Shown piece after piece: positions 5,854 to 28,600 of a DNA stretch of 64,000 nucleotides (positions within the stretch are counted from its first letter, which is position 1; each line of letters starts with the position of its first letter). The notes below the pieces were generated by a model. The model worked only from the letters and a program-made list of their open reading frames with translations. It did no database searches and was not told where the DNA came from. Both the position numbers and the translations under genes were made by a program. Source of the DNA: Terriglobia bacterium (GTDB taxonomy: Bacteria > Acidobacteriota > Vicinamibacteria > Vicinamibacterales > CAVVIG01). The stretch covers positions 120 through 64,119 of the forward strand of contig JAIQFX010000027.1 of assembly GCA_020073005.1 (NCBI GenBank). Direction: 5' to 3'.

Positions 5854-5899
5854 GATCTTGTAGCATCGAGGGTTAGCGCGCCGGAGTGACTAGAAAATT

Positions 5900-8643: not shown

Positions 8644-9494
8644 CGACGTTCGTCGCCGAGGTCTCGAGCAACCACCACCGCGATCTCAATCGCGCCGTGG
8701 CGTTCGTCGAAACGGCGTCGCGCCTGGGCTGCGCGGCGGTCAAGTTTCAGCTGTTCAAGATCGAGGAGCTGTTCGCGCCCGAGATCCTCGAGAAGAGCCC
8801 GAAGCACCGGGCGCGCGCGCAGTGGGAGCTGCCCGAGTCGTTCCTGCCGGCGCTCGCCGCGCGCAGCCGCGATCTCGGCATTCAGTTCGCCTGCACGCCG
8901 TTCTCGCTCCGCGCGGTGGACGTCCTGCAGCCGCACGTGGACTTCTACAAGATCGCGTCCTACGAGCTGCCGTGGACCGATCTGCTGCGCGCGTGCGCGC
9001 GCACGGGCAAGCCCGTGGTGCTCGCGACCGGAATGGCGACGCTCGACGAAGTCGTGCGCGCCGCGGACACGCTGCGCGGCGCCGGCTGCGCGGATCCGCT
9101 GCTGCTGCACTGCACCTCCGGCTATCCGACGCCGGTGGAGCAGTGCAATCTCGCGGCGATCGAGACCATCCGGACCGCGACCGGCGCGCGCGTCGGCTGG
9201 TCCGATCACAGCGTGAGCCCCGCGGTGATCTACCGCGCCGTGCACCGCTGGCGCGCGGAGATGATCGAGTTTCATCTCGATCTCGACGGGACCGGCGCGG
9301 AGTTCGGCGCCGGGCACTGCTGGCTGCCGAAGCAGATCGGGCCCGTGATCGAAACCATCCTGCACGGCGTCGCGGCCGACGGCACCGGCGAGAAGCAGCC
9401 CGTGGACGCCGAGCGCGACGATCGCGCGTGGCGCGCCGATCCGAGCGACGGTCTGCGGCCCACGGTCGCGATCAGGAAGACGTGGACGCCGTGA
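8640..9494 (+). CDS. NeuB-family nonulosonic acid synthase (pseudaminic acid synthase-like, no SAF domain)
   Basis: 'AEVSSNHHRDL', 'AVKFQLF', 'FYKIASYE', 'LLHCTSGYPTP' and 'GWSDHS'. ATGA overlap with the pseC stop. The upstream part of ORF 7860..9494 is out-of-frame overlap with pseC. Confidence 0.75.
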   Translation: MTTFVAEVSSNHHRDLNRAVAFVETASRLGCAAVKFQLFKIEELFAPEILEKSPKHRARAQWELPESFLPALAARSRDLGIQFACTPFSLRAVDVLQPHVDFYKIASYELPWTDLLRACARTGKPVVLATGMATLDEVVRAADTLRGAGCADPLLLHCTSGYPTPVEQCNLAAIETIRTATGARVGWSDHSVSPAVIYRAVHRWRAEMIEFHLDLDGTGAEFGAGHCWLPKQIGPVIETILHGVAADGTGEKQPVDAERDDRAWRADPSDGLRPTVAIRKTWTP

Positions 9495-9496
9495 CG

Positions 9497-9607
9497 AAAT
9501 TGCGGAACGCGGAATGCGGAGCGCGGAGGTCTGGCGACGGAACAGCGCGAGCAATCGAGACGTTCGACGAGTCTCAATCCGCATTCCGCAATCCTCAATC
9601 CGCAATG
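9497..9607. repeat. inverted GCGGAAT/GCGGAGY heptamer arrays with about a 42-nt spacer
   Basis: Left arm is aaattgcggaacgcggaatgcggagcgcggagg. Right arm is tctcaatccgcattccgcaatcctcaatccgcaatg. It starts 3 nt after the synthase stop. Confidence 0.8.
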
Positions 9608-9624
9608 TTGTGGTGGAGCGCTGC

Positions 9625-10962: not shown

Positions 10963-11040
10963 TGAAGAATTAAGAATGAAGAATTACGAATTATGAATTC
11001 CGAACCATTCTTAATTCCCAATTCCTAATTCTTAATTTCA
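10961..11040. repeat. inverted pair of TAATTCY heptamer arrays
   Basis: aatgaagaattaagaatgaagaattacgaattatgaattc / attcttaattcccaattcctaattcttaatttcac. It includes the TAA stop 10960-10962. Confidence 0.8.
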
Positions 11041-11042
11041 CT

Positions 11043-11990
11043 GTGCATTACCGTCCCCTCGGCCGCACCGGCCTCGCCGTCTCCGCTCTCTCGCTCGGCA
11101 CGGTTTCCCTGGGCGTCGACTATGGCATCCAGGCGCCGGGCGAATTCGGCCGGCCAGACGAGGCGGAGGCGATCCGGCTGCTGCGCGCGGCGGTCGACCG
11201 CGGCATCACGCTCGTCGACACGGCGCCGACCTACGGCGAGAGCGAGCGCCTCGTCGGACGTGCGTTGGGCCGCGACGCGCGCATGCTGTTCGCGACCAAG
11301 GTCGGCTCCGCGCTGCACGAACGGCCCGGCGAGCTTCGCGGCCCCACGCTTCGCGCGGAGCTCCTCGCGTCGATCGACCGCAGCCGTCGCGCGTTCGGAC
11401 GCGACGTGATCGATATCCTTCAGTTCCACAACGCGACGCGCGAGCTGATCGACGCCGGCGAGGTGACCGACATTCTGCTGGACGTCAAACGCCGCGGCCT
11501 CGTCCGCGTGCTCGGCGCCTCGGTCCTGAGCGCCGCCGCGGCGATGGCCGCGATAGCATCGGGAGAGTACGAGCAACTGCAGGTCGCGTTCAGCGCGCTG
11601 GACCAGCGGATGGCCCGCGACGTGCTGCCCGCCGCGCAGGCGGCGGGCGTCGGCGTCGTCGTCCGCTCCGCCCTGCTCAAGGGCGCGCTCACGCCCAAGG
11701 CGCAGTGGCTGCCAGAGGCGCTCGCGCCGTTGCGCGAGGCCGCGATCCGCGCGCGCGACGCGCTCGCGGGCGGCGTCTGGGATCGGTTGCCGGATGCGGC
11801 ATTGCGCTTCTGCCTCTCGACGCCCGGCGTCGCAACCGTGTTGACGGGCGCGAGGACGATGACGGAGCTCGACGCGGCGCTCGAAGCAGAAGCGGCAGGG
11901 CCGCTTGATGCGCCGACGGCCGACGCTGCCGGGCGGCTTGCAGTGGCTGACGAAGCGCTTCTGGACCCGTGGCATTGGCCTGTGCCGTGA
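11043..11990 (+). CDS. aldo/keto reductase
   Basis: 'YRPLGRTGLAVSALSLGT' and 'DTAPTYGESE' AKR signatures. GTG start. Confidence 0.8.
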   Translation: MHYRPLGRTGLAVSALSLGTVSLGVDYGIQAPGEFGRPDEAEAIRLLRAAVDRGITLVDTAPTYGESERLVGRALGRDARMLFATKVGSALHERPGELRGPTLRAELLASIDRSRRAFGRDVIDILQFHNATRELIDAGEVTDILLDVKRRGLVRVLGASVLSAAAAMAAIASGEYEQLQVAFSALDQRMARDVLPAAQAAGVGVVVRSALLKGALTPKAQWLPEALAPLREAAIRARDALAGGVWDRLPDAALRFCLSTPGVATVLTGARTMTELDAALEAEAAGPLDAPTADAAGRLAVADEALLDPWHWPVP

Positions 11991-13018
11991 TGCGATCGAT
12001 CCTCATCCGTTGCGACGGCGGCGCCGACATCGGCATGGGCCACGCGGTCCGATCGCTGGCGCTTGCCGACGAGCTGCGCGACGCGCACGGCTGCGCGATC
12101 GCGTTTGCGATGCGCGAGCCCGCCGGCGCGGGCGCGGCCGCCGTGCGCGCGGCGGGGTACGCAATCGACGTGATCGAGGCCGACGATCGCCACGACTATC
12201 CCGACGTCCTCGCCGCCCTCACCGCGTCGCGCAAGGCTGACGTGCTGATCGTCGACGTCCGCGACGCGCTGTCGCGCGCGGCGCTCGACCGTCTTCGTCA
12301 GGCCGGCGTCCACATCGTCACGATCGACGACATCTCCGAACGGCGGCTCGCGTCGGACCTCGCGTTCTATCCGCCCGTTCCGCACGTCGCGGCGATCGAT
12401 TGGACCGGATTCACCGGTCGCCGGTATGCGGGCTGGGAGTGGGTGATTCTCAGAAGAGAGTTTGGGGCAGGTGGGGCTGGTGGGGAGAGCCCCGCGATCG
12501 ACGTGCTCGTGACGATGGGCGGGAGCGACGCGGCGGGGATGACGGCGTTCACGCTCCAGGCCCTCGAGCTGCTGCCGATGCCGCTCTCGGTTCTCGTCGT
12601 GGTGGGACCGGCGTTCACCCACGCGCTCGAGCTCATCGACGCGGCCGCGCGCTCACGGCACAGCGTTCGGATCGCACGGACGCCCGGGTCGATGGCGGCG
12701 CTGATGCGCGGGAGCCGGATGGCCGTCGCGGCGTTCGGCGTCAGCGCGTATGAGCTCGCGGCCTGCGGCGTGCCGGCCGTCCATCTCTGCCTGACGAGCG
12801 ACCACGAGCGCTCATCGTCTGCCTTCGTCGAGGCCGGCATTGCGATCACCGCAGGTGTATTCGGACACGTGCTGCCGGAGCAGATTGCCGACTCGGTGAC
12901 GCGGCTGATGGGGAATGCCGGCCGCCGCGGCGAGATGGCGGAGCGCGCGCGGCGCCTGGTCGACGGCCGCGGCGCTCGACGCGTGGCCGACGAGATCGTC
13001 AGCCGGTTACTGAGCTGA
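11990..13018 (+). CDS. pseG: UDP-2,4-diacetamido-2,4,6-trideoxy-beta-L-altropyranose hydrolase-like (GT-B, PseG family)
   Basis: 'IRCDGGADIGMGHAVRSLALA' and 'VLVTMGGSD'. TGATG overlap with the AKR stop. Confidence 0.7.
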   Translation: MRSILIRCDGGADIGMGHAVRSLALADELRDAHGCAIAFAMREPAGAGAAAVRAAGYAIDVIEADDRHDYPDVLAALTASRKADVLIVDVRDALSRAALDRLRQAGVHIVTIDDISERRLASDLAFYPPVPHVAAIDWTGFTGRRYAGWEWVILRREFGAGGAGGESPAIDVLVTMGGSDAAGMTAFTLQALELLPMPLSVLVVVGPAFTHALELIDAAARSRHSVRIARTPGSMAALMRGSRMAVAAFGVSAYELAACGVPAVHLCLTSDHERSSSAFVEAGIAITAGVFGHVLPEQIADSVTRLMGNAGRRGEMAERARRLVDGRGARRVADEIVSRLLS

Positions 13019-13372: not shown

Positions 13373-15244
13373 TCAACGAGTCTCGGCGACCAGCGCGGCG
13401 ACGCGGTCGGTCGCGTGGCCGTCCAGCTCGGACACGTACGCGCGCAGCTCGGCGCTGCGCGCAAGCGCCCCGCGATCCAGCCCGGCCGCGCCGGCGCGCC
13501 GCGCGGTGAGCTGTTGCCCGAGTTCCTCGATCGAGTACGCGATCGCGATCCCCGGCACGCGATCGAGCGGCAGCAGCTTCCGGCGGAAGACGGCATCGAA
13601 GACGATCGCCGGTGTGCCGAGCGCGATCGACTCGAGCACGGTCGTCGAGTACGCGGCGACGAGCACGTGCGACTTCTCGAGGATGTCGTACAGAATCGGC
13701 TCGCGGATCGTCGTCAACGTCAGCGGATCCCACCCCAGCGCCCGCGCGGCCTCCGCGTAGTACTCCGCTTCCTCGCCCGGATGCATCTTGTGAATGACGC
13801 GGACGTCGGTCTGCGTCCGGGCCCACGCGAGGACCGCGTCGATCATCAGCAGGTTCTCGTACTCGGACGCGCCCATCGAGTAGTCCGTCATGAAGCCGGA
13901 GCAGATCGTAACGGTGAATGTGGCTGGTGCCTGGTGACTGGTGGCTGGTGACTGACTCCCGACTCCCGACTCCCGACTCCCGACTCGCGCGGCGAGCGCG
14001 TCAAAGCGCGGGTTACCCGTTACAACAAAGCTCGCTGTCTGCGCGCCTTGCGCGCGATACCACGTCTCGGTCCAGTCCCCCCACGTGGCGAGCCGGTCCA
14101 CGTGCGCGACGGAATGCCCGTTCGGCTCGCCCGTGATGCCGTGCTGGATTCCCGTCGACGCCACGCCGAAGCGGCGCGCCGTGTCGATGAGCACGCGGTT
14201 GTACGCCGTCACGTCGCTCGACGTGAGCACTCGCCCGCCGGCGCACGCGTCGGTGAGCGACTGCAGGTGACGCAGCGCCGGGACCCACGCCGCGATGTGC
14301 AGCCACACCGTGCGGCCGACGAGCGGCCAGTACGGCACGCCGGCCACGGTGAACTGGCCGGCGTGCGCGCGATCGCCGCTCAACGAGAGCGCCTGCGCCA
14401 CGGCGTCGGCGAGCGCGCCCAGCCAGCGGATCGGATCGACGAGATCGGTGAACGCTTCCAGTGGGATGAGGTCGCGCGGTTGAAACAGCGCGCGCCCGGG
14501 CTGCGTCGCCCCCGCGATCACGATGGGACGCGCGGCGCCCTGAAGCCGCTCGACGACATCCGCGGTGAAGCGATCGCCGACGACGATCAGCGCGCGAGCG
14601 CCTGGCGACGGCATCGCACCGCGCGCGATCCGGCGCCACAGGCCCGTGAAGAACGTCAACCAGATGAAGCCCGGCTCGAGCACGAGCGCGCGAAATTCCG
14701 TGTTGACCCACTTCGTCGCGCGGCCGGCCCGAAGGCGCGCGAACGCCTGCGCCGCGCGCTGAAGGACGTCACCGCCGACGATCTCGGTCGTCAACCCGCG
14801 ACGGCTCGCCACGAGGCGCGCGGCGTCCACGAGCGGCCCGCCGCCGACGAGCACGAGGCGGCCCGGCGCGGATCGCGTCAGCTCGTCGTCGATCGCGGTG
14901 ACGTTGCGCACGGCGCGGCTGAACGACGGGATGAGCGTGTACTGCAGGTATGGGCCGAAGTTCGTGCCCATGGCTTCGGCGTGCTTGCCCGCGGCGCGCG
15001 TGACGCCGTCGAGCATCGCGCGATCGCGCTCGACGATGAGATCCGGCGTGAGGCCGTCGGTCGTCAGGCGCGCGTCGATTCCTTCGCGGCGCAGCCGCAT
15101 CGCGAGCAGCGCGTCGCCGGTCAGGACGGCGGCCGACGCGCCCCGCAGCCGCGCCGGCGCCAGCGCTTCCCGCAGCGCGCGTTCCGCGTGACGGTCCTCG
15201 ACGATCAGCAGCTGGTCCGTGATACGGCGAGCGTACCACGACAT
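13373..15244 (-). CDS. hypothetical two-domain protein, C-terminal half GT-B/Rossmann-like (candidate glycosyl- or nonulosonate-transferase)
   Basis: 623-aa ORF with normal composition in a sugar locus. The C-terminal 'VLVAAYSTTVLESIALGTPAIVF' resembles the GT-B donor-binding helix. No family was recognised with certainty. Confidence 0.45.
   Translation of the reverse strand: MSWYARRITDQLLIVEDRHAERALREALAPARLRGASAAVLTGDALLAMRLRREGIDARLTTDGLTPDLIVERDRAMLDGVTRAAGKHAEAMGTNFGPYLQYTLIPSFSRAVRNVTAIDDELTRSAPGRLVLVGGGPLVDAARLVASRRGLTTEIVGGDVLQRAAQAFARLRAGRATKWVNTEFRALVLEPGFIWLTFFTGLWRRIARGAMPSPGARALIVVGDRFTADVVERLQGAARPIVIAGATQPGRALFQPRDLIPLEAFTDLVDPIRWLGALADAVAQALSLSGDRAHAGQFTVAGVPYWPLVGRTVWLHIAAWVPALRHLQSLTDACAGGRVLTSSDVTAYNRVLIDTARRFGVASTGIQHGITGEPNGHSVAHVDRLATWGDWTETWYRAQGAQTASFVVTGNPRFDALAARVGSRESGVGSQSPATSHQAPATFTVTICSGFMTDYSMGASEYENLLMIDAVLAWARTQTDVRVIHKMHPGEEAEYYAEAARALGWDPLTLTTIREPILYDILEKSHVLVAAYSTTVLESIALGTPAIVFDAVFRRKLLPLDRVPGIAIAYSIEELGQQLTARRAGAAGLDRGALARSAELRAYVSELDGHATDRVAALVAETR
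13920..13986. repeat. GGTGRCT and GACTCCC heptamer arrays, in-frame inside the 623-aa CDS
   Basis: gtggctggtgcctggtgactggtggctggtgactgactcccgactcccgactcccgactcccgactc. On the minus strand it is translated as 'SRESGVGSQSPATSHQAPAT'. Confidence 0.8.
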
Positions 15245-15261: not shown

Positions 15262-16209
15262 ATGCCCAAACGCAAGGCGTGGCAGGGTCACGCCGGAGAG
15301 GCGCTGGACACCGTCGACCAGTTCACGGTCATCGATTGCGACGCGTGCCGCTTCAAGCACATCGTTCCGATTCCCACGCCGGCCGAGCTCGAGCACACGT
15401 ACGGGCACGAGTACTACTCGACGACCAAGCCGCTCTACATCGAGCGCGACCTCGAAGATCGCGACTGGCTGAATCTCGTGTACTCGGAGCGGTACGACGC
15501 GTTCGAGCGGCTGCTCGGACTGAAGCGGCGCCGGCTGCTCGACGTGGGATCGGGCCCCGGGCTGTTCCTGCGCCACGGCGTCGAGCGCGGCGGGTGGAAG
15601 GTCAAAGGACTCGAGCCGTCGACGCAGGCCGTCGCCCACAGTCACACAATCGGGCTCGACGTCACGCAGGCGTTCCTGAATGAAGAGACCGCGGCCGCGC
15701 TCGGCCGGTTCGACGTCGTGCATCTGAGCGAAGTCCTCGAGCACGTGCCCGATCCGCTGGGCATGGTCAAGATCGCGCACGGCCTGCTCGATCCGGGCGG
15801 GCTGCTCGCCGTCATGGTGCCGAACGACTACAGTCCGATTCAGTCGGCGCTGCGCGACGGGTGCGGCTTCAGTCCATGGTGGGTCGCGCCGCCGCATCAC
15901 GTGAACTACTTCGACGTCCCGTCGATCCAGCGGGTGCTGAAGCCGCGCTTCGACGTCGTGTCCGTCGACACGTCGTTTCCCATCGATCTGTTTCTGCTGA
16001 TGGGCGACAACTACGTCGGCAACGACGCACTCGGGCGCGCGTGCCACGCGAAACGCAAAACGATGGAGCTGCATCTGGCGCGGGCCGGAAAATCAGGACT
16101 GAAGCAGGCGATGTACCGGAGCCTCGCGCAACTGGGCGTGGGCCGCGACGTGTTCGTCATCGCGCGCAGGCGCGGCGGGCGACGTGCACGGCGGAGCGGT
16201 GGGAAATGA
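15262..16209 (+). CDS. class I SAM-dependent methyltransferase with N-terminal C-x2-C zinc-ribbon-like motif
   Basis: 'LLDVGSGPGLF' (motif I), 'VHLSEVLEHVPDP' and 'IDCDACRFKH'. Confidence 0.8.
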   Translation: MPKRKAWQGHAGEALDTVDQFTVIDCDACRFKHIVPIPTPAELEHTYGHEYYSTTKPLYIERDLEDRDWLNLVYSERYDAFERLLGLKRRRLLDVGSGPGLFLRHGVERGGWKVKGLEPSTQAVAHSHTIGLDVTQAFLNEETAAALGRFDVVHLSEVLEHVPDPLGMVKIAHGLLDPGGLLAVMVPNDYSPIQSALRDGCGFSPWWVAPPHHVNYFDVPSIQRVLKPRFDVVSVDTSFPIDLFLLMGDNYVGNDALGRACHAKRKTMELHLARAGKSGLKQAMYRSLAQLGVGRDVFVIARRRGGRRARRSGGK

Positions 16210-17432
16210 AGCGGCGACGCCTTTTGCTGCTCGGCGCCGGCTTCGAGCAGATCGCCGCGATGGACGTCGCGCGCGATCTCGGCCTGCACGTGACCGCGTT
16301 CGACAACAATCCTCGCGCCGAAGGCGGCACGCGCTGCCACGAATTCGCGCCGGTCGATCTGCGGAATCCAGCCGCGCTCCTCGATGCCGCCAGGCGGGCA
16401 CGGCCGGACGCCGTGTTCGTGCACGCCGTCGAGCTCGCGGTCGAATGCGCGTCGGTCGCGGCGGCGCTCGGACTCCCGGGATTGACGCGCGAGTCCGCGA
16501 TCGCCGGAACAGACAAGGCGGTGCGCGTGGCCGCGCTGTCGAAGGCCGGCGTGCCGGTGCCGCGCTGGGCGCCGCTTCCTTCGTCCGGTCCGGCGGCGGC
16601 GTGGCTCGAGATCGCGACGACGCTCGCGCCGCCGTGGGTGATCAAGCCGACCGATCAGCGCGGCGCCATCGGCGTCCGGCGCTGCGAGACGGCAGACGAC
16701 GTCGCGCGGTACTTTCGCGATCGTGATGTGTCGTTCGGCGGCTTTCTGATCGAAGAATGGATTCCCGGTTCGCAGTTCAGCACCGAAAGCGTCGCCGTGA
16801 ACGGATCCGTCCGCCACACGGCGGTGGCGCTGCGCCACTACGACACGACCGGCGATCTGCTGCCGTGTCTGATTGAAGACGGCCACTCGATGCCGATCGC
16901 GCTCGCGCCCGCGACGCAGCAGGCGATGGATCGCGCGATCGCGCGCTCGTTCACGGCGCTCGGCATCCGCGACGGCGTCCTGAAGGGCGACCTCGTCGTC
17001 CGCGGCGACGGCGACGTCGTCGTGCTCGAGATGGCGGTGCGCACGTCCGGCGGACGCTTCGCGGACACCGTCGTCCCATTATCGAGTGGCGTCAACATTC
17101 TGTATCCGCTGATCCTGCAGGCGCTTGGTGAGACGCCCGCCGATCGCTGGTTCGCGCCGACGCGGACGGCCGGCGTGTCGCAACGATTCATCTTTCTGCC
17201 GCCGGGCCGCGTTCTCACGCGGTTTCCCGAGTTTTCCAGAATATTCGCGCGTCCGGGCCTCCACGAGTGGCGGATATCGGACACACTGTTCGGGAGCGGC
17301 GTCACACCGTCGGTCCGGAGTCACCGCGATCGCATCGGCTACGCGATCGCGTCCGCGGCGGATCGCGAGCAGGCGGACCGGCTGGTCCGCGACGTCCTGG
17401 CCGGGATTGAATGGAGCTATGAGCGCGCCTGA
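16206..17432 (+). CDS. ATP-grasp domain protein (carboxylate-amine ligase-like)
   Basis: 'PWVIKPTDQRGAIGV', 'FLIEEWIPG' and 'VVLEMAVRTSGG'. ATGA overlap with the methyltransferase stop. Confidence 0.75.
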   Translation: MKRRRLLLLGAGFEQIAAMDVARDLGLHVTAFDNNPRAEGGTRCHEFAPVDLRNPAALLDAARRARPDAVFVHAVELAVECASVAAALGLPGLTRESAIAGTDKAVRVAALSKAGVPVPRWAPLPSSGPAAAWLEIATTLAPPWVIKPTDQRGAIGVRRCETADDVARYFRDRDVSFGGFLIEEWIPGSQFSTESVAVNGSVRHTAVALRHYDTTGDLLPCLIEDGHSMPIALAPATQQAMDRAIARSFTALGIRDGVLKGDLVVRGDGDVVVLEMAVRTSGGRFADTVVPLSSGVNILYPLILQALGETPADRWFAPTRTAGVSQRFIFLPPGRVLTRFPEFSRIFARPGLHEWRISDTLFGSGVTPSVRSHRDRIGYAIASAADREQADRLVRDVLAGIEWSYERA

Positions 17433-18573
17433 TCGCATCGTGGTCGTCGGCAGCGGCGCGTACGTGATCGGCGACACGTACGGCCCGGGCGTCGTGCTGC
17501 GCAGCATTCTGGCGTGGCTCGATTCGCGCGGCCGCGCGGGCGACGTCGTGCTGACGTCGCGGACTGCGGCGCGCCGCGAGGAGGCCGCGCGCGGCGCGGC
17601 TGAAGCGGCCGCCGACCTCGGATCGCGCACGCCGGTCTCGGTCGTCGCGGCCGACGACGTGGAGCGGCTGCTCGGCGGGCGGCCGCTGGCGGTCTTCGTG
17701 TGCGTGCCCGATCAGGCGCATCAGCATTACGTCGAAGCGGCCGCCCGCGCGGGCGTTCCGGCCTGGCTCGTGAAGCCGGTCACGGGCGATCTCGCGACCG
17801 CGCGCGTGCTGGAAGCGTCCTGCCGCGCGAAGGGCGCCGCCGTCTGGGTCGACTATCACAAGCGGTTCGACGCGTCGAATCTGCTGCTGCGTTGGTCGGT
17901 CGAACGCGGCGAGCACGGCCGCCCGCTGCACTACTTCGTGCAGTTCTCGCAGCCGCGCGACCTGCCGATGCAGCACTTCGCCTGGGCCGTGGACGTCGAT
18001 CCGCTGACGTACATCGGCTGCCACTACCTCGATCAGATCGCGTTCGTGTTTCCCGGCGTGATCGCCGAGCGCGCGATGGCGATTACGATCGACGGCCCGG
18101 TCCGCCACGCGGTCGGCGGGCGGGCGCACGACAAGGTGATTTGCGACGTCGTGCTGCGGTACAGGAATCAGCCGCTGGTGGCGTCGCTGCACGTGGGGTG
18201 GGCGAACCCGCTCGGCGCGCCGGCCAAGAGCGTTCAGCGCGTCGAGCTCGACTTCGAGCAGGGAAAAGTCGTCGCGGATCAGACGGCGCGCGGCTATCAG
18301 GTCTGGACCGACGCGGGCACGCGCGAAGTGAATCCGTACTTCTTCCAGCGCCTGCCCGATCCGGTGACCGGCGCCGCGACCGTGACCGGGTACGGCTACG
18401 ACAGCGTCGCGCGTTTTCTCGACTACTGCGTGGCTGACGCAGACGAGCAGCACCGGCTGCGCGCGAGCGCGACGCTGCCGTGGATCGAGCACGCCGTGTT
18501 CGCCGAGCGCGTGCTCGCGGCCGCGACGGCCTCGATCGCCGCCGGCGGCCGCTGGGTGGACATCGCGTCATGA
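17419..18573 (+). CDS. Gfo/Idh/MocA-like NAD(P)-dependent oxidoreductase
   Basis: 'IVVVGSGAYVIG', 'VCVPDQAHQHYV' and 'VDYHKRF'. 14-nt overlap with the ATP-grasp gene. Confidence 0.65.
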   Translation: MSAPDRIVVVGSGAYVIGDTYGPGVVLRSILAWLDSRGRAGDVVLTSRTAARREEAARGAAEAAADLGSRTPVSVVAADDVERLLGGRPLAVFVCVPDQAHQHYVEAAARAGVPAWLVKPVTGDLATARVLEASCRAKGAAVWVDYHKRFDASNLLLRWSVERGEHGRPLHYFVQFSQPRDLPMQHFAWAVDVDPLTYIGCHYLDQIAFVFPGVIAERAMAITIDGPVRHAVGGRAHDKVICDVVLRYRNQPLVASLHVGWANPLGAPAKSVQRVELDFEQGKVVADQTARGYQVWTDAGTREVNPYFFQRLPDPVTGAATVTGYGYDSVARFLDYCVADADEQHRLRASATLPWIEHAVFAERVLAAATASIAAGGRWVDIAS

Positions 18574-19814
18574 TCACCGCGAAGGACGCGCTCGCCGCCG
18601 ATCTCGCGAAACTGACACCGGCCTCGCTCAAGACGGCGCCGCTCGCCGAGCTGACGGCGATCGCGCAGAAGATCCGCCAGCTCCTCATCGGCACCCGGCC
18701 GCAGGCGGATCGCGCGCTGGCGGCGAATCTCTCGAACGTCGAGCTGACGCTCGCGCTCCACCGCGCCTTCGACTGGCCGGACGATCGCATCGTCTGGGAC
18801 GGCGGCCATCAGATGGACACGCACCGGATCGTGACCGGACGCGTGGATCGCTTCGCGACGCCGGCGTTCGAGGCGTCGGGCCGCGCCGTGATGAAGACGG
18901 AAGGCGGCCCGGAGGTGATCGAGGCCGCGCGCGGCGGCACGTCGATCTCGATCGCGCTCGGGATCGCGCTCGGCCGCGCGCTCAAGGGCGACACGCGGCC
19001 GGTCGTGTGCGTCATTGGCGACGGCGCGCTCGCGCAGGGCGTCGCGCTCGAGGCACTCAATCACGCGGCGAGCGTGCCGCACGTGAATCTGATCGTCGTG
19101 CTGAACGACAACAGCGATTCGACCGGCGGCGGGGCGTTGCACGCGTACTTGCGCTCGCTCGCGGTCGGGCGGCGCGATCCCGAGGCGTTGTTTACGTCGC
19201 TCGGGTTCGATTACATCGGGCCTGTCGACGGTCACAGCGTCGAAGCTCTCTCGCAGGCGCTCGATCGCGCCAGGGTCTCGACGCAGATCCCGATCGTCCA
19301 CGTCAAGACGCAGCGAGGGTACGGCAGCAAGCCGCAGCCGGTCCGGCGCGACACGAATCGCTTCGCGGACGCGGCCGCGGCGATCGTCGCCGACGAGATG
19401 GCGCGCGACGAGCGTCTGGTCGTCGTCGTGCCGGCGCCCGCCGAAGAGCTCGGATTCGCCGCGCTGCTCGCGAAGCTGCCGGATCGCGTCTTCGCGCCGC
19501 GGCTCGACGAGCCGCATTCCTTCGCCGCGACGGTCGGGCTCGTGTCCGAGCGCTACAAACCGGTGGTCGTCGCGGACAGCGCGTTTCTCGAGCGCGCCTT
19601 CGATCACGTCGCGCGCGATCTCTGCGCGGGCAACGTGCCGGTCGTCGTGCTGGCGATCGGACGGCTGACGGAGCCGAAGGCCTGGCAGGGCCTGCCGCAC
19701 GTGCGCGTGCTCATGCCCGCGACGAAGGCCGAGCTCGACAAGACGCTGCGCGAGGCGCTGCGCGAAGTGCCGGGGCCGACGCTCTTCGTCCTGTCCGCCG
19801 GGCCGGCCGCGTGA
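18570..19814 (+). CDS. truncated 1-deoxy-D-xylulose-5-phosphate synthase-like thiamine-diphosphate enzyme (PP + Pyr domains, no C-terminal domain)
   Basis: 'NLSNVELTLALHRAFDWPDDRIVWDGGHQMDTHRIVTGR', 'GGTSISIALG', 'VIGDGALAQGVALEALNHA' and 'VLNDN'. Only about 414 aa. ATGA overlap with the upstream gene. Confidence 0.7.
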   Translation: MITAKDALAADLAKLTPASLKTAPLAELTAIAQKIRQLLIGTRPQADRALAANLSNVELTLALHRAFDWPDDRIVWDGGHQMDTHRIVTGRVDRFATPAFEASGRAVMKTEGGPEVIEAARGGTSISIALGIALGRALKGDTRPVVCVIGDGALAQGVALEALNHAASVPHVNLIVVLNDNSDSTGGGALHAYLRSLAVGRRDPEALFTSLGFDYIGPVDGHSVEALSQALDRARVSTQIPIVHVKTQRGYGSKPQPVRRDTNRFADAAAAIVADEMARDERLVVVVPAPAEELGFAALLAKLPDRVFAPRLDEPHSFAATVGLVSERYKPVVVADSAFLERAFDHVARDLCAGNVPVVVLAIGRLTEPKAWQGLPHVRVLMPATKAELDKTLREALREVPGPTLFVLSAGPAA

Positions 19815-19816
19815 AC

Positions 19817-21796
19817 ATGCTCCAGCTGTTCTCGATTTTTCATCTGAACCTCGCGTACTCCTCGATCGAAGAGGCCCAGCGGCCCGACGTCGTCCACCGG
19901 TGCTACTGGCCGCTCGTGCGCCTGATCGAGCGGACGGGGGCGCCGATTGGCATCGAGGCCAGCGGCTTCACGCTCGAAACCGCGGCGGCGATTGATCCCG
20001 CGTGGCTGCGCGCGCTGCGCGACCTCGTGTCGGCGGGCCGGTGCGAGTTCGTCGCGAGCGGCTACGCGCAGATCATCGGTCCGCTGGTGCCCGCGGCGGT
20101 CAACGCCGCCAACCTCCGTCTCGGACACGAGGTCTATCAACGGCTCCTCGGCGTCCGGCCGCGCCTCGCGTTCGTCAACGAGCAGGCGTACTCGGCCGGC
20201 CTCATCCAGCACTATCTCGACGCGCGCAGTGACGCGATCGTCATGGAGTGGGACAACCCAGCGCGGGCGCACGCCGAGTGGAACCCCGGCTGCCGCTACT
20301 TCCCACAGATGGCGGCCGGACAACACGGCGAAACCATTCCGCTCATCTGGAACACGGCGATCGCGTTCCAGCAGTTCCAGCGCTACGCGCACGACGAAGC
20401 GTCGCTCGACGAGTACCTGTCGTACCTGGGAGACAAGGCCGTCGCCACGCCGCGCGTGCTGGCGATGTACGGCAACGACGCCGAGATCTTCGACTTCCGG
20501 CCCGGCCGCTATCACACCGAAGCGCCGGTCGCGGCGGCAGGCGAGTGGAATCGCATCAACACGTTGTTCGATGCGCTGCAGGCGGACCCGCGCTTCGCGT
20601 TGATTCCGCCCTCCGGCGCGCTTGCGCTCATGGATCAGCCGGACGCGGGACAACGGCTGCACCTTGAATCTGCGTCCGACCCGGCGCCCGTCAAGAAACA
20701 ACGGAAGTACAACATCACGCGATGGGCGGTCACCGGGCGCGACTCGCTCGCGATCAACACCGCGTGCTGGCGGCGATACGCCGCGCTCACGAAAGATCCC
20801 GGCGCGACCGACGCGGCGTGGCGGGAGCTCTGCGAGTTGTGGTCCAGCGATTACCGGACGCACATCACCGATGCGCGATGGGCCGCGTATCGGAAGCGGC
20901 TCGATGGTGTAGCGCGAGCCGCGGTTGTAGCGCGAGGCTTTCAGCCGAGCGTCGCCGGCTCGCCTGAAAGGCTCGCCCTGCAATCCATCGCATCGGGCGA
21001 TCCCGGCGTCACGCGCGACGGCGCGTTCCTCACGCTGAAGCACGGCGCGGTCACGCTCGTCCTCAACTGCCGCCGCGGTCTCGCGATTCACGCGTTGTCG
21101 TTCGAAGGACGCGGCGATCATCCGCTCTGCGGCACGCTGCCGCACGGGTTCTACGACGACATCCACTGGGGCGCCGACTTTTACTCGGGAATGACGGTGA
21201 TGGAGTCGCCGGGGCGGCCGAAGATCACCGATCTGAACCGCGTGGAGCCGGTCGTCGGGCGCGACGATCAGGGCGCGCTCGTCGTCGAGGGCGCGATCGC
21301 GACCGACCTCGGCCCCGTCGTCAAGCGCGCGCGCGTCACGCCGTCCGCGGTGGACCTCGAGTACCGGCTGGAGTGGCCCGAGCGGCCGGTCGGCTCGCTG
21401 CGGCTGGGCGACGTCACGCTCCATCCGTCCGCGTTCGATCGCTCGACGCTTTTCTACCGCAGCCACAACGGCGGCGCGCGGCCCGAGACGTTTCCGCTGG
21501 ACGGCACGCGCGTGAGCCACGGCGACGCGGTGTCGTTCCTCGTGTCCGCGAGTCACGCGGTGGGCATCACCGAAGGCGTCGTGGAACTCGGCGATCGCGC
21601 GACCACGCTGCGCATCGAGGTCGACAAGACGCTCGCGGCCGTGGTGGGAATGGTGACGTACCAGCCGGTCGGCGACCGCTACTTCTGCCGCATCAGCTTT
21701 TCTGCAGGCGAAGTCGACGACACGCGCAAGCCCGCAGCCGCGACCGGCGCCGAGCCGCTCGTCTGCCGGTTTCGAATCACCGCGCAGCGCGCGTAA
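19817..21796 (+). CDS. glycoside hydrolase family 57-like protein
   Basis: The N-terminal 'FSIFHLNLAYSSIEE ... IEASGFTLE' resembles the GH57 catalytic-barrel start. GTG 19811 (GTGA overlap) is an alternative start. The upstream part of ORF 19007.. is out-of-frame overlap. Confidence 0.5.
   Translation: MLQLFSIFHLNLAYSSIEEAQRPDVVHRCYWPLVRLIERTGAPIGIEASGFTLETAAAIDPAWLRALRDLVSAGRCEFVASGYAQIIGPLVPAAVNAANLRLGHEVYQRLLGVRPRLAFVNEQAYSAGLIQHYLDARSDAIVMEWDNPARAHAEWNPGCRYFPQMAAGQHGETIPLIWNTAIAFQQFQRYAHDEASLDEYLSYLGDKAVATPRVLAMYGNDAEIFDFRPGRYHTEAPVAAAGEWNRINTLFDALQADPRFALIPPSGALALMDQPDAGQRLHLESASDPAPVKKQRKYNITRWAVTGRDSLAINTACWRRYAALTKDPGATDAAWRELCELWSSDYRTHITDARWAAYRKRLDGVARAAVVARGFQPSVAGSPERLALQSIASGDPGVTRDGAFLTLKHGAVTLVLNCRRGLAIHALSFEGRGDHPLCGTLPHGFYDDIHWGADFYSGMTVMESPGRPKITDLNRVEPVVGRDDQGALVVEGAIATDLGPVVKRARVTPSAVDLEYRLEWPERPVGSLRLGDVTLHPSAFDRSTLFYRSHNGGARPETFPLDGTRVSHGDAVSFLVSASHAVGITEGVVELGDRATTLRIEVDKTLAAVVGMVTYQPVGDRYFCRISFSAGEVDDTRKPAAATGAEPLVCRFRITAQRA
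20908..20977. repeat. TGTAGCGCGAGSC / GGCTCGCCTGAAAGGCTCGCC hairpin repeats in-frame inside the GH57-like CDS
   Basis: tgtagcgcgagccgcggttgtagcgcgaggctttcagccgagcgtcgccggctcgcctgaaaggctcgcc, translated 'VARAAVVARGFQPSVAGSPERLA'. A related unit lies at 41784-41807. Confidence 0.7.
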
Positions 21797-21826: not shown

Positions 21827-23806
21827 TCAGGGTCCCGTGACCGGATTCGTGACCTGGACGCCGAGAATCCGCACGTCGGCCTTCGGCTCGCCGGGCATGG
21901 CCGCCGGCGACCACGTCGGCGACGTGATGAGATCGATCCGCTGGTAGCCATCGTCTTCGGGCAGGAGCGGCAGGCGCAGCGACACCGGGACCCAGTCGTC
22001 GCGATGGAGAAGCACGCGATCGAGCGTGCGGCCGCCGATCGCGATCGTCACTTCCGTCGGCCCCGTGTTCGTGCCCAGGTGAATCGCGCGCAGCGTCAGG
22101 TGCAGCGCGTGCGCGTTCAGCGGCACGAAGAAGGTCCCGCGCCTCGCGGTCCAGCGGAACTGCACCCCGCTGTCCGCTTCCCACGGGTAGAAGCCGAACG
22201 TCTGCCTCGTCAGATCGAGATTGGCGATCTCGTGCCGCGCCCGCAGCGGCACCGACACGACGAGGGCGGCGGCGATCGCCGCGACCGCGATCGCCGCCGG
22301 TCTCGCGATCCACGCGGCGACGCCCGCTGACGCGCGGCCGGCCGCATGCGGCCGCGCCGCGAGCGGCGGCTGCGCGTCGCCGTCGGCGCGCGCCAGCGCG
22401 ACGCCCAGCAGGATCCAGAACGGGTACGCGACTTCCGCGACGAGCAGCGGATGGCTCGTCATCCACGTCGCGACGAACGTGGCGACGCCCGCGACGGCGC
22501 CGAGCAGCAGCACGTCGCGCGGATCCGCGCGGACGCCGCGGGCGAGCCGGATCGCCGCCGCGCCGAGCAGCCAGACGAACGCCGCGACGCCAATCAGGCC
22601 GAGCTCGCCGCCGATCTGCAGGAAGTTGTTGTGCGCGTTCTCGTGGAAGTAGAACCAGTAGATCGACTGCGGCATGAACTGGCCGGAGCGCTCGTAGTAG
22701 CGGCCGACGCCGACGCCGAAGACCGGCGCGCTCCGGATCATCCGCAGGCCCGTGATCATGAAGTCGCGGCGCATCGAGATCATGTTGGCCGCGGTGCGCG
22801 CGGCCGTCGGCCGCGGATCGATTCCCAGCGCGAGAACCGCGAGCGCGACGGCGACGGCGATCGCGACCGCGGCGGTCGCCCACGCCGGCCACCTGGCCGG
22901 ACGCAGCGGACTGATCGCGAACGCGACGATCACGCACGCGCCAATCGCGGAGACGAGCGCCACGCGCGATCCCGTCAGCCAGACGCCCGCCAGCAGCAGC
23001 GCGGTGATCACGCCCCAGGCCACGCGGGGCCACGACGGCCAGCGCGGCATGCGGCTCCAGCGCGTGTTCACGGCCAGCGTGAGCGCGATCAGCCCCGCCA
23101 TCGCGAAATACGATCCGGCCGCGTTGACGTCGGTGACGTGCACGCTTGTGCGGCTGGCGAGCAGTTGATGCAGGGACGCGGAGTGCGCGACGACGGCTCG
23201 AATCGTCAGGAGCGCCGCGCCGGCGGCGGCGAGCGTGGTCGCCGCGAGCAGGTGCACCGGCCGCAGCACGCCGTCGCGCGCGTGCCGGGCGACGAGCCAC
23301 GCGAGCGCCACGCCCTCGAGCAGCAGCGCGCCGTCGGCGACGCCGGTGTACGACGCGCCGGGCGGCTCGAGCAGGTAGTCGCGCGTCAGAAACATGAGGA
23401 AGTCGCGCAGGAACGGCCACGGCGCGTGCGTGCCCGTCTGCAGCACGCGGAGCGAGACGGCGATCGACGCGAGGACGATCGCCGTGAACACCGCGCCGGG
23501 CACGACGAGTCCCGGACGCTGACCGCCGAGCGGCGTGCGACGTGGCCGTCCGGCGGCGATGGCCAGCCCGGAGAGCGCGGCGAGGACGAGCGTTTCCGCG
23601 AGCCGCAGCCGCGTCGTGTCGGTCGCGATCAGCAGCCACGACGAGAACGGCGCCGTCACCGTCAGCGCGGCGATCGCCCAGTGCGGCCGGACGATGGCCA
23701 GCGCCCAGAAGGCGGCGAGCAGGATCCGGAGTTCGACGGGAACGGCGGCGGAGGTCAGCGCGGACAGGAGCGGGACGAGGAGCGCCGCTCCGCACAGCGT
23801 CGTCAT
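21827..23806 (-). CDS. O-antigen ligase/Wzy_C-domain membrane protein with C-terminal extracytoplasmic domain
   Basis: 'FHENAHNNFLQIGGELGLIG' (Wzy_C-like loop), at least 10 TM helices and a roughly 200-aa soluble C-terminus. Confidence 0.65.
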   Translation of the reverse strand: MTTLCGAALLVPLLSALTSAAVPVELRILLAAFWALAIVRPHWAIAALTVTAPFSSWLLIATDTTRLRLAETLVLAALSGLAIAAGRPRRTPLGGQRPGLVVPGAVFTAIVLASIAVSLRVLQTGTHAPWPFLRDFLMFLTRDYLLEPPGASYTGVADGALLLEGVALAWLVARHARDGVLRPVHLLAATTLAAAGAALLTIRAVVAHSASLHQLLASRTSVHVTDVNAAGSYFAMAGLIALTLAVNTRWSRMPRWPSWPRVAWGVITALLLAGVWLTGSRVALVSAIGACVIVAFAISPLRPARWPAWATAAVAIAVAVALAVLALGIDPRPTAARTAANMISMRRDFMITGLRMIRSAPVFGVGVGRYYERSGQFMPQSIYWFYFHENAHNNFLQIGGELGLIGVAAFVWLLGAAAIRLARGVRADPRDVLLLGAVAGVATFVATWMTSHPLLVAEVAYPFWILLGVALARADGDAQPPLAARPHAAGRASAGVAAWIARPAAIAVAAIAAALVVSVPLRARHEIANLDLTRQTFGFYPWEADSGVQFRWTARRGTFFVPLNAHALHLTLRAIHLGTNTGPTEVTIAIGGRTLDRVLLHRDDWVPVSLRLPLLPEDDGYQRIDLITSPTWSPAAMPGEPKADVRILGVQVTNPVTGP

Positions 23807-25629: not shown

Positions 25630-28600
25630 ATGCCGTCGCGTCCGACCGCTGATACCACGCCCGAGACCGCACTGGGCGTGCCGGGTTACACGTTCGCCGA
25701 TCTGCACGATCCGCCGAGGCTGGCGTCGCTCTACGAGCGCTTCTGCGAGGAAGTGGCCGCGGCCGATCCGGTTGTCTGGCGCGAGTGGGACGCGTATCGC
25801 CAGGCGCCGGATGCGCCGCGCGCGCCGCTCGCGGTGTCGAATCTGCTCACGAGCATGGCGCCGCACGTCAGCCGCTTCCTCACGCGCCTGTTTCAGGTGG
25901 AGCCGGACGCGCGCGCGATCGGCGACGCCACCCGCGCGCAGGACGATCTGTTCCGCTTCAAGGTGGACTTCGTGCGCCGCCGCGCGCTGCCGCTCGTCAA
26001 ACTAGACAAAGCAGGCGGCGCGCCCCTCACGGCAACGCCCGAAGACGATGCGATCGTCGACCAGCTGATCGCGCGATCGGCCGGCGTCGACCGCGAGCTC
26101 GCCGTCGCACGAGCAGGATGCGCGCTCCTCGATCAAGAGCGCGCCGAAGCCACCAGCCACCAGCCACCAGCCACCAGTCGCCAGGTCGATGCGCTCAAGC
26201 GCTGGTGCGCGTCGCGTCTGCACGACCGCGCGTACCGCGACTGGGTGATCTTCCGTTTTCCCGAGACGCTCGACTACTGGAAGCTCGTCGAGGTCCGGCG
26301 TCCCGAGCCGCGGCGGCCCGAGTCGATGCTCGGGCCTGATTGGCGGCGCCGCCGCCGCGATGGTTTCCTGCTCACGGACGCGCGCATGAATGCGCGCGAG
26401 ACGATGAGCGAGATCCATTACTGCGTGCTGTGCCACGAGCGCGACAAGGACTCGTGCTCGAAAGGCCTCTTCGAAAAAGATCTCACAGTTGTCGTCAACC
26501 CGCTCGGCATTCCGCTCGACGGCTGTCCCCTCGACGAGAAGATCTCCGAGATGCACACCTTGCGCAAGGCCGGCGACGCCGTCGGCGCGCTCGCGCTCGT
26601 CGTCGTCGACAACCCGATGTGTCCCGGCACCGGCCATCGCATCTGCAACGACTGCATGAAGTCGTGCATCTACCAGAAGCAGGAGCCGGTCAACATTCCG
26701 CAGATCGAAACGGGCGTGCTGACCGACGTCCTGCGGCTGCCGTGGGGCGTGGAGATCTTCGGTCTGCTCACGCGGTGGAATCCGCTCAACGTCCGCCGGC
26801 CGTACGCGCTGCCGTACAACGGCAAGAACGTCCTCGTCGTCGGCCTCGGCCCCGCGGGTTACACGCTCGCGCACTATCTGGTGAACGAAGGCTTCGGCGT
26901 CGTCGGCGTCGATGGACTCAAGATCGAGCCGCTGCCGCGCGACATCGTCGGCACCGACACCGTCGCGCCGCGGCCGATTCGCGACTGGGACGAAATCTAT
27001 CGCCGCCTCGACGAGCGCGTGCTCGAGGGATTCGGCGGCGTGTCCGAGTACGGGATCACCGTGCGATGGGACAAGAACTTCCTGACGCTGCTGCACCTGA
27101 CGCTCGCGCGGCGGCGCGGCCTGCGGATGTACGGCGGCGTCCGCTTCGGCGGCACGCTGCCCATCGAGGACGCGTGGACGTACGGCTTCGATCACGTGGC
27201 GATTGCCGCGGGCGCCGGACGGCCGACCGTCATCGACATGAAGAACAACCTGATCCGCGGGATCAGGAAGGCGAGCGATTTCCTGATGGCGCTGCAGCTG
27301 ACGGGCGCCTTCAAGCGCGACGCGCTTCCCAATCTGCAGGCGCGCCTGCCGGCGGTCGTCATCGGCGGCGGCCTCACGGCGATCGACACGGCGACCGAGC
27401 TGATGGCGTACTACCCGCTGCAGGCGGAGAAGACGCTGCGGCGGTACGAGACGCTCGTCGCCGAGATTGGCGAAGCGCGCGTGCGCGGCGCGTACGACGC
27501 CGAAGAGCTCGAGATTCTCGACGAGTCGCTCGCACACGGACGCGAGGTGCGCGCCGAGCGCGCGCGCGCCGCGACCGCCGGCGAGTCACCCGACTTCGTG
27601 CCGCTCGTGCGATCGTGGGGCGGCGTCACGATCGCGTACCGCAAGCGCATGGTCGATTCGCCGGCGTACCGGCTGAATCACGAGGAAGTGATCAAGGCGC
27701 TCGAAGAAGGCATCGTGTTCGCGGAGCTGCTGAATCCCGTTGAAGCAGTTTCGGACGCGCGGGGCGCGCTGAAAGAAGTGATCTTCAGGCGGGAAGGGCG
27801 GGAGAGGCAGGAAGGGCAGGAAGGGAACGTGACGCTCCCTGCGCGGACGCTGCTCGTGGCGGCGGGGACGACGCCCAACATCACGTGCGAGAAGGAAGCG
27901 CCGGGCCACTTCCAGCTCGACGCGAAGAAGAAATTCTTCCAGCCGCACGGCGTCACCGCGAACGGCGACGGCCGTTTCCATCTGACGCCCGATCCGAACG
28001 GCTTCTTCACGTCGTACGACGCCGACGGCCGGTTCGTCACGTACTACGGCGACAACCATCCGCGCTACGCCGGAAACGTCGTCAAGGCGATGGCCTCGGC
28101 CAAGCACGGCTTCCCGCAGGTGACGCGGCTGTTCGCGCGCGACCTCGCGTCGCTCGACGCGGGGAAGCAGGCCGATCGCGATCGCGCCTGGACGGCGCTC
28201 GTGCAGCGGCTCGACACCGATCTGCTCGCGCGCGTCGAGGACGTCGTGCGGCTGACGCCGACGATCGTCGAAGTCATCGTGAAGGCGCCGGCGGCCGCGC
28301 GCCATTTCCATCCGGGTCAGTTCTACCGGCTGCAGAACTTCGAATCGGTCGCGCGCCGCGTCGGCCCGACGCCGCTGCTGATGGAAGGCATCGCGCTCAC
28401 CGGCGCGTGGGTGGACAAGGAGCGCGGGCTGCTGTCGCTCATCGCGCTCGAGCTCGGCGTGTCGAGCCGGCTCGTCGCGTACCTGCAGAAGGGCGAGCCG
28501 GTCGTCGTCATGGGACCGACGGGCGCGCCGACGGACATCCCCGAGTGCCAGAACGTGCTGCTGCTCGGCGGCGGCCTCGGCAACGCCGTGCTCTTCTCGA

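Follow-up and report, generated by a model that had tools for sequence, protein, structure and literature searches.

The window analysed here is a stretch of 64,000 nucleotides from a Terriglobia bacterium (Acidobacteriota, Vicinamibacterales; contig JAIQFX010000027.1, positions 120 to 64,119), and our subject is a truncated gene at 18570-19814(+) whose 414-aa product is related to 1-deoxy-D-xylulose-5-phosphate (DXP) synthase, referred to below as DXS for the family and DXPS for the characterised enzymes. From comparison with its relatives, we firmly assign the gene, as a derived member, to an uncharacterised clade of DXS-like proteins (~597 aa, "family B") that is tied to nonulosonic-acid loci. 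By the same comparison the gene is not a degraded housekeeping DXS, and the residues that its product has lost lead us to predict with confidence that it is not a DXP synthase and cannot make DXP. The reading we favour, to which we give a probability of about 0.45, is that the protein would be a streamlined accessory enzyme that binds thiamin diphosphate (ThDP) and tailors the pseudaminic-acid glycan encoded by the surrounding locus, its acceptor site having been opened up.

The open reading frame (ORF) that contains the gene extends over 18480-19814(+) and holds an ATG at 18570 with the family-wide N-terminus MITAKDAL (MITAKDALAADLAKLTP); the start of the 414-aa product was placed there because every close relative carries this N-terminus. 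The peptides quoted in the initial annotation of this DNA as DXS-like are all present in the translation, and its description of a 414-aa DXS homologue that lacks the C-terminal domain is borne out by the domain structure, which consists of a PP domain (~aa 16-255) and a reduced PYR domain (~aa 266-405) with no C-terminal transketolase (TKC) domain. In Pfam, DXP_synthase_N matches aa 16-199 (E=9.3e-58), Transket_pyr matches partially (aa 266-361, covering profile positions 6-106 of 174) and Transketolase_C has no match in the protein. A phmmer comparison with the solved structures of the Protein Data Bank (PDB) returns at first only DXPS entries, with E-values down to 8e-57, and then transketolases, a relationship to DXPS that by sequence is far beyond chance. 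The AlphaFold2 (AF2) model (pLDDT 76.5, pTM 0.72) has a compact, DXPS-like two-domain fold whose top Foldseek matches are DXPS structures, over domains I and II, at TMq 0.75-0.84.

The truncation is genuine and belongs to a conserved gene. Orthologues of 414-417 aa with 82-85% identity occur in three other metagenomic loci (L002, L083 and L087), a partial fifth copy occurs in L094, and contigs of three sequencing runs, which come from two studies of freshwater sediment and wetland, run across the stop codon and the 2 nt before the next gene and show no indels. Because five independent metagenomic loci and three read sets reproduce the same truncation, an error of assembly or sequencing, which the initial annotation had named as part of a finding that would overturn its proposal, is rejected. 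The second such finding, a downstream ORF that supplies the missing domain, did not materialise either. Only two bases separate the TGA stop (19812-19814) from the ATG of the next gene, which is GH57-like, also accompanies full-length relatives and so is no substitute for a DXS domain. The alignment of the 414-aa protein ends at family-B residue ~447 (E. coli ~482), and full-length family B, searched against the window by tblastn, aligns at this locus over residues 1-447 only and otherwise finds just an unrelated transketolase at 48 kb, so that a missing domain encoded nearby is rejected as well. The metagenomes yielded no match to a pattern (RLxEPKAWQxLP) that spans the junction of a small deletion, described below, in the PYR domain.

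Outside the truncated clade, the nearest group is family B proper, ~60 clusters of 575-600-aa proteins with 40-54% identity to the window protein and a retained TKC domain, as compared to 33-37% identity for canonical DXS. The initial annotation had called for a phylogeny, and in a neighbour-joining (NJ) tree, which is distance-based only and rooted on the window's own transketolase, the gene falls outside canonical DXS: family B and the truncated clade are monophyletic with respect to canonical DXS in 97% of 200 bootstraps. The truncated clade is itself monophyletic (100%) and sits on a long branch within family B, as sister (96.5%) to a small clade of three proteins, P0038, P0040 and P0042. 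Long-branch attraction is a concern for this sisterhood, but the two clades have indels in common, namely the loss of the GGH motif, a deletion just past NDN and the deletion of the fork segment, and these shared indels weigh against long-branch attraction as its source. In the residue numbering of the E. coli enzyme, transferred through an alignment with structure 2O1S, full-length family B is without a ~37-aa insertion found in canonical DXS; R99 is replaced by Asn, Y392 by Gln and R478 by Tyr, and H49, H80, H299, E370, R398, R420, D427 and H431 are kept. The proposal in the initial annotation that departure from DXP synthesis went together with truncation is not sustained, since the shift came earlier, in the full-length 597-aa nonulosonic-acid clade. 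Family B bears the dxs name in databases because its full-length members, at 515-535 bits, only just exceed the 466 bits that NCBI requires of a dxs equivalog (a canonical control, P0074, reaches 856), and the window protein falls below the cut-offs of both models (226.2 bits against 466 for TIGR00204 and 228.4 bits against 395 for NF003933). We file the gene as a derived variant of family B because it is not full-length, is without H49, H299, D427 and H431, and has no short-chain dehydrogenase/reductase (SDR) gene directly downstream. A scan of GTDB genomes with the family-B alignment gave no family-B locus among the matches listed, which were dominated by canonical dxs.

What most distinguishes the truncated proteins is the division between residues that serve the cofactor and residues that serve the substrates of DXPS. 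The ThDP/Mg2+ motif (G150-D151-G152...N179-D180-N181, i.e., GDG-X26-NDN; 19017-19112(+)) is evident in the sequence and alignments and is kept in all truncated orthologues, and in the four complete ones (window, L002, L083 and L087) D151, G152, N181, H80, E314, H316, F339 (E. coli F395) and R342 (R398) are all retained. The initial annotation had pointed to altered signatures, and these are real. The "LDEPH" motif aligns with IAEQH of the E. coli enzyme and retains the catalytic, cofactor-activating Glu (E314, equivalent to E370; codon 19509-19511(+)), and the DRAG loop (E. coli ~421-432, with D427 and H431) has been removed by a 12-aa deletion at 19659-19670(+), where the alignment reads ...AIGR and then directly LTEP.... 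As to whether the active-site Glu and His residues survive, the alignment gives a divided answer: E314 and H80 do, and H49, H122, H299 and H431 do not. In all four complete orthologues H49 is replaced by Ala (A49, codon 18714-18716(+), where GGH has become DRA), R99 by Pro, H122 by Arg, Y392 by Asp and R478 by Ala; I185, the fork segment that includes H299 and F304, and D427 and H431 of the DRAG loop are deleted; and domain III is absent. The equivalent of R420 is ambiguous (G or R, one position off beside the DRAG deletion). R420 and R478, together with Y392, are the residues of DXPS that bind the phosphate of D-glyceraldehyde 3-phosphate (GAP), and the network H431-D427-R99-H49-H299 gates decarboxylation of lactyl-ThDP (LThDP) in the E. 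coli enzyme (PMC12633525). Taking as universal the 92 positions of domains I-II that are at least 95% conserved over 108 full-length family-B and canonical sequences, we find 56/92 retained in all four truncated orthologues and 36/92 (39%) altered.

The sister clade presents the opposite pattern. P0038, P0040 and P0042 (L084:10001-11734) are full-length proteins of 575-577 aa, encoded by intact ORFs and 68-84% identical to one another; the L084 locus is full of insertion sequence (IS) elements and gene fragments. These proteins retain domain III and 68/92 universal positions but have lost GDG, N181, F395 and H49, and the clade is probably a ThDP-free pseudoenzyme. Since this sister keeps more of the universal positions and yet lost those for the cofactor, the contrast between the two clades argues for specific selection on cofactor binding in the truncated one.

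All full-length family-B genes that could be placed sit in nonulosonic-acid loci, which carry NeuB, PseB/DegT-type, CMP-sugar synthetase and MptE-like genes; the family-B gene is directly followed by an SDR gene, with ATP-grasp, methyltransferase and GH57-like genes close by, except that in loci of the Vicinamibacterales type these two genes have a split transketolase between them. In one locus (L088:3872-5665) the family-B gene itself consists of two ORFs, one of 268 aa for the PP domain and one of 316 aa for PYR+TKC, beside the split transketolase. In the window, the DXS-like gene is the fourth of a tight operon in which neighbouring genes lie 2 nt apart or share 4-14 nt: a 315-aa S-adenosylmethionine (SAM)-dependent methyltransferase (MT315; 15262-16209(+)), an ATP-grasp amide ligase resembling L-amino-acid ligases, of type (b) (16203-17432(+)), a 384-aa GFO/IDH/MocA oxidoreductase (GFO; 17419-18573(+)), the DXS-like gene and the 659-aa GH57-like gene (19817-21796(+)). 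The GFO stop overlaps the DXS-like start by 4 bp (ATGA), an overlap conserved in five loci.

Comparison by a tblastn table of synteny, which includes 8 loci gathered from metagenomes with a pattern for the family-B N-terminus, distinguishes three locus types with common flanks (u623, MT315, the GH57-like gene, u204 and thiG). The full type reads MT315, in some cases a 387-aa methyltransferase (MT387), the 597-aa DXS-like gene, the two parts of the split transketolase (TK-N and TK-C), the SDR gene, ATP-grasp(a) and the GH57-like gene. The truncated type, represented by the window, L002, L083, L087 and L094, reads MT315, ATP-grasp(b), GFO, the 414-aa DXS-like gene, in some cases MT387, and the GH57-like gene, and the third type, L097, consists of MT315, ATP-grasp(b), GFO and the GH57-like gene with no DXS-like gene. 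ATP-grasp(b) shows no more than 31-33% identity to ATP-grasp(a), as compared to 73% for the L097 copy and 42-48% for those of L098 and L099. The quartet of methyltransferase (MT), ATP-grasp, GFO and GH57-like genes occurs at L097:2692-7959, L098:6753-12758 and L099:5900-12408, with no ThDP enzyme beside it in any of the three; L098 and L099 are flagellin-glycosylation loci with NeuB, CMP-transferase, PseB, PseC, flagellin, FlaF, FlbT and FliX. Because it stands without the DXS-like gene in these loci, the quartet is an old, self-sufficient cassette. The gene orders and identities indicate that in the lineage of the window the family-B cassette (DXS-like gene, split transketolase, SDR, ATP-grasp) has been swapped for this independent one, and they identify the 414-aa gene firmly, together with MT387 in three relatives, as a remnant of the replaced cassette. 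Of the DXS-like gene only two domains, the first and the second, were left, and these were trimmed by in-frame loop deletions and evolved fast before coming under purifying selection.

The tailoring-enzyme reading proposes that this remnant still has a use. The 414-aa protein would still bind and activate ThDP, because GDG-X26-NDN, H80, E370, F395 and R398 are all kept, and it would act as an accessory, non-essential enzyme in the tailoring of the pseudaminic-acid glycan. In the likeliest chemistry, it would decarboxylate a 2-oxoacid such as pyruvate and pass the C2 unit on to an acceptor with a carbonyl group, in an active site that would be wide open now that the fork and DRAG loops are missing. 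This acceptor may be a keto compound made by GFO, the dehydrogenase to which the protein is translationally coupled, and in sister loci the product would then be methylated by the adjacent MT387. Several observations favour a functional ThDP protein: cofactor residues are kept where substrate residues are wiped out, the reverse of what is seen in P0038, P0040 and P0042; the PP and PYR domains build the DXPS-type active site within one subunit (PMC11387542, PMC7661550); siAniP, an active DXPS-like carboligase in which the substrate residues of transketolase and DXPS are absent, R478 is Asp and only GDG...N and the Glu remain (PMC11387542), works without the classical histidines; the in-frame loop deletions resemble streamlining to two domains; and the start of the DXS-like gene overlaps the GFO stop in all five loci. 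A more specific version, in which a naturally minimised PP+PYR protein works as an active ThDP carboligase, joins a C2 unit from pyruvate to a GFO-made keto intermediate and so gives the surface glycans of Acidobacteriota a new derivative of pseudaminic acid, C-branched or acyloin-decorated, is a good deal more speculative, and we consider it improbable.

A number of points weigh against the tailoring-enzyme reading. The whole DXPS network H49-R99-H299-D427-H431 is gone, as are Y392, R478, H122 and I185, and E. coli DXPS reportedly cannot do without H49 (PMC9068908, PMC12633525). Domain III, the main dimer interface of DXPS (PMC9068908), is missing; a 2-aa deletion adjoins the Mg-binding NDN loop; and residues 96-120 of the AF2 model have pLDDT <50. 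No RNA run contains the sequence. The quartet occurs without the DXS-like gene in L097, L098 and L099, so that the gene is dispensable for this cassette, and MT387, present beside the gene in L002, L083 and L087, has been lost in the window, which hints at ongoing reduction there. Finally, because the sister clade lost its cofactor motifs, the common ancestor of the two clades may already have been non-catalytic.

Much of this would suit the best-surviving alternative, a non-catalytic pseudoenzyme with a structural, scaffolding or regulatory role, for instance as a partner of GFO or of the ATP-grasp ligase, with or without bound ThDP. On such a view all substrate-handling and acid/base residues of DXPS could go and 39% of universal positions could change, along with the dimerisation domain, and that the quartet functions elsewhere without the protein would likewise fit; P0038, P0040 and P0042, which share the loss of H49 and the fork deletion and have a destroyed GDG/NDN, furnish a precedent in that their ORFs have nonetheless remained intact. 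What a pseudoenzyme does not readily explain is the selective retention of residues that bind and activate ThDP, including a Glu known only for cofactor activation. Bound and activated ThDP is, moreover, intrinsically reactive, and siAniP shows that DXPS-like activity can persist without the classical His cluster. We therefore hold a pseudoenzyme to be a serious contender but the less probable of the two.

Both the tailoring-enzyme and the pseudoenzyme readings require that the protein still matter to its hosts, and the pattern of substitution suggests that it does. Pairwise dN/dS values (NG86 method) for the truncated gene are 0.20-0.30 in all six pairs at dS 0.33-0.54, compared with 0.13-0.19 for the same two domains in full-length relatives and with 0.11-0.22 for the GFO gene, 0.17 for the ATP-grasp gene and 0.37 for the GH57-like gene among its neighbours. 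The four complete truncated copies contain no frameshift or premature stop, and the sole indel among them is in frame. Low dN/dS together with the lack of frameshifts and stops implies a gene that is maintained at the amino-acid level, if mildly relaxed, with purifying selection still acting on the truncated protein. Domain III has dN/dS 0.23-0.56 in full-length relatives, where it is the least constrained part, and the lost domain may thus already have been expendable. The transketolase of E. coli reportedly tolerates loss of its C-terminal domain.

These values stand against viewing the gene as a functionless relic, a by-product of cassette-swapping recombination and deletion that has stayed open by chance or through translational coupling and is heading to loss. 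Such a fate would fit the stepwise series that leads from the full cassette to the truncated gene with MT387 (L002, L083, L087), to the truncated gene alone (window) and to neither (L097), as well as the long, accelerated stem branch, which is reflected in 50% identity to full-length relatives as compared to 69-76% for the flanking MT315 and GH57-like proteins, and the lack of RNA runs noted above. Four copies that remain open at this degree of synonymous divergence, and low dN/dS in every pair, are difficult to reconcile with a relic, since translational coupling by itself would not constrain amino-acid changes, and we regard it as unlikely.

The initial annotation had envisaged a ThDP carboligase for sugar branching by the logic of yersiniose-type sugars, and this role is possible, if less likely than was assumed there, because nearly all substrate-handling residues of DXPS are lost and the cassette works without the gene in relatives. 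YerE, which uses ThDP and FAD, adds a pyruvate-derived acyl anion to a keto-sugar to form the two-carbon branch of yersiniose, after which a reductase acts (YerE/YerF). A protein of this kind, adding a pyruvate-derived two-carbon branch to a keto-sugar nucleotide, would be a special case of the tailoring enzyme that we favour. The translationally coupled GFO/IDH/MocA gene upstream belongs to a family that includes sugar dehydrogenases with keto products, the SDR gene directly after the DXS-like gene in full-length relatives echoes the YerE/YerF logic, and with the fork and DRAG loops gone the acceptor site would have room for a bulky substrate. The keto-sugar acceptor, however, rests on no direct evidence, the window protein is not homologous to the ALS/POX-like YerE enzymes, its catalytic histidines are lost and the GFO cassette functions in its absence. 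The analogous module in Shewanella points instead to an acyl moiety appended by an ATP-grasp ligase, not to a branched sugar, and we rate sugar branching a minor prospect. A bona fide DXP synthase (housekeeping, or feeding ThiG next door), or an artefactual truncation of one, is effectively refuted, even though the best database matches are DXS, full-length family B passes the dxs cut-off marginally and thiG lies nearby on the other strand, by scores of 226-228 bits against cut-offs of 466 and 395, the absence of the active-site network and GAP-phosphate residues, the recurrence of the truncation in five loci and three read sets, the separation from the canonical clade and the absence of the thiG adjacency in other family-B lineages.

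The remainder of the locus agrees with the initial annotation in showing a glycan context rather than an isoprenoid one. By its gene content it is a pseudaminic-acid glycan locus, because it encodes PseB (4792-5889(-); TIGR03589, 506 bits against a cut-off of 408), a flippase (5900-7618(-)), PseC (7405-8643(+); 446 bits, cut-off 424), a NeuB/PseI-like protein (8637-9494(+)), a PseG-like protein (11951-13018(+); 134 bits, just under its cut-off), Wzy_C proteins and a family 2 glycosyltransferase (GT2). One of the Wzy_C membrane proteins, resembling O-antigen ligases and polymerases, flanks the operon at 21827-23806(-), and the window has two of them in all. Between the NeuB/PseI-like and PseG-like genes are a class-III, glutamate-1-semialdehyde (GSA)-aminomutase-like aminotransferase (9514-10962(+)) and an aldo-keto reductase (10980-11990(+)). 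This pair (9514-11990) is also conserved in a full-type locus, on the P0031 contig, and is probably part of an unusual side-chain pathway. The divergently transcribed gene u623 (13373-15244(-)) encodes a conserved 623-aa protein for which no Pfam family passes the threshold, its DUF6716 and GT1-like matches being faint. With 55-80% identity it recurs, divergently transcribed, in all loci of the Vicinamibacterales type, and it is a candidate for the glycosyltransferase that acts on the modified sugar. A tblastn search of the 64-kb window detected no homologue of CMP-nonulosonate synthetase (PseF/CTP_transf_3), and the scanned genes of the cluster included no PseH-type acetyltransferase; the latter absence would fit alternative N-acylation by the ATP-grasp ligase.

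Elsewhere in the window, a full, three-domain transketolase is encoded separately, as the initial annotation had stated, at ~48230-50152. It lies in a housekeeping setting (with isocitrate/isopropylmalate dehydrogenase, response regulator and phosphodiesterase genes), for which reason a link to the DXS-like gene is rejected; its identity to the split transketolase of the full-type loci is 47% for TK-N and 41% for TK-C. The thiG gene lies 4.6 kb downstream of the DXS-like gene on the opposite strand, an adjacency that is lineage-specific. A functional link through thiG or a thiamin pyrophosphate (TPP) riboswitch is unsupported, as the window contains no Rfam matches and no promoter-like sites; terminator-like sites are no more frequent in it than in shuffled sequence. 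Beside thiG, 25630-29196 encodes a 1188-aa protein with a Pyr_redox_2 domain whose position is conserved in related contigs, and 36175-39252(-) encodes an Aas-like protein of 1025 aa in which AMP-binding, PP-binding and acyltransferase domains are fused. The GH57-like ORF contains, in frame, a palindromic REP-like element of 37 nt (GGCTTTCAGCCGAGCGTCGCCGGCTCGCCTGAAAGGC; 20936-20972), of which a partial copy occurs at 41791-41806(-). Metagenome contigs rise in depth from ~20x to ~370x at this element and many contigs join there, which marks it as a dispersed, multi-copy sequence.

These results have implications for annotation, since automated pipelines label the full-length clade, and probably the window gene too, as DXP synthase, and relabelling matters for the reconstruction of the methylerythritol phosphate (MEP) and thiamin pathways in metagenome-assembled genomes (MAGs) of Acidobacteriota. 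For enzymology, the truncated clade is a natural experiment on how little of the transketolase/DXS scaffold selection keeps (no TKC domain, no fork, no DRAG loop), and it forms a contrast pair with P0038, P0040 and P0042, where the scaffold has been retained and the cofactor site lost. For evolution, the series of loci with the full cassette, a remnant and a methyltransferase, a remnant alone or nothing documents stepwise cassette replacement. For glycobiology, family B offers a DXS-type counterpart of the Sfm module of Shewanella, which is genetically defined and chemically unsolved, and hence a second, independent handle on unusual acyl or carbon decoration of pseudaminic and legionaminic acids.

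Among known systems, canonical DXPS (E. coli, 2O1S; D. radiodurans, 6OUV) shares with the window protein its superfamily, the fold of domains I-II (TMq up to 0.84), the order of PP before PYR and the conserved GDG-X26-NDN, H80, E370, F395 and R398. The two are 28-37% identical. Canonical DXPS differs in having three domains (~580-640 aa) and a place in the MEP pathway, whereas the window protein is without domain III, the spoon/fork segment and the DRAG loop and belongs to a separate clade in a glycan context. The closest relatives are members of family B such as P0036, from the Vicinamibacterales MAG GCA_035315685.1, with 47-54% identity over the whole query. They have in common with the window protein the N-terminus MITAKDALAADLAKLTP, the lack of the ~37-aa insertion and of Arg at R478, and synteny with u623, MT315, the GH57-like gene, u204 and thiG, but they keep domain III, H49, H299, D427, H431 and the downstream SDR gene, all lost in the window, where GFO lies upstream, and they keep R420, whose equivalent in the window protein is ambiguous. 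Split-gene transketolases, e.g., that of C. hydrogenoformans, demonstrate that PP and PYR/TKC modules are separable by gene (PMC7661550); these and L088 still encode all three domains, in contrast to the window, which is without TKC altogether. YerE has an ALS/POX-like fold (PYR, middle, PP; FAD-binding), as opposed to the DXS/TK class and PP-then-PYR order of the window protein seen with Pfam and Foldseek, and the two have in common a proposed logic but no relationship of sequence or domain order.

In the literature we looked for PDB entry 9KPQ and for pathways to nonulosonic acids that use a ThDP or transketolase-type enzyme, and our searches yielded only papers on Shewanella and on AniP. 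AniP/siAniP of anisomycin biosynthesis is, like the window protein, a paralogue from the DXS clade in specialised metabolism with R478 replaced; it is a carboligase that works on non-phosphorylated acceptors and does not use GAP, and its gene is clustered with those for an aminotransferase and an SDR (PMC11387542). It differs in its three domains (~607 aa), its aromatic 2-oxoacid donor and its place in a Streptomyces natural-product cluster, and it is not specifically related to family B, as the DXPS-like entry 9KPQ scores below canonical DXPS. The sfmABCDE genes of Shewanella oneidensis encode a NeuB-like protein, an IlvB-like ThDP enzyme (SfmB), an SDR, a 395-aa methyltransferase and an ATP-grasp protein, and the operon is needed for the 274-Da nonulosonic acid of flagellin to receive a variably methylated moiety of 236 Da (PMC3765264). 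Compared at the level of Pfam domains only, the logic of their gene content is that of full-length family-B loci, and the window has the NeuB-like, methyltransferase and ATP-grasp genes and a degenerate ThDP protein, with GFO instead of the SDR. SfmB is of the ALS/IlvB class and family B of the DXS/TK class, a case of analogy and not orthology, and because its gene content mirrors sfmABCDE, family B is best seen as a DXS-type analogue of SfmB.

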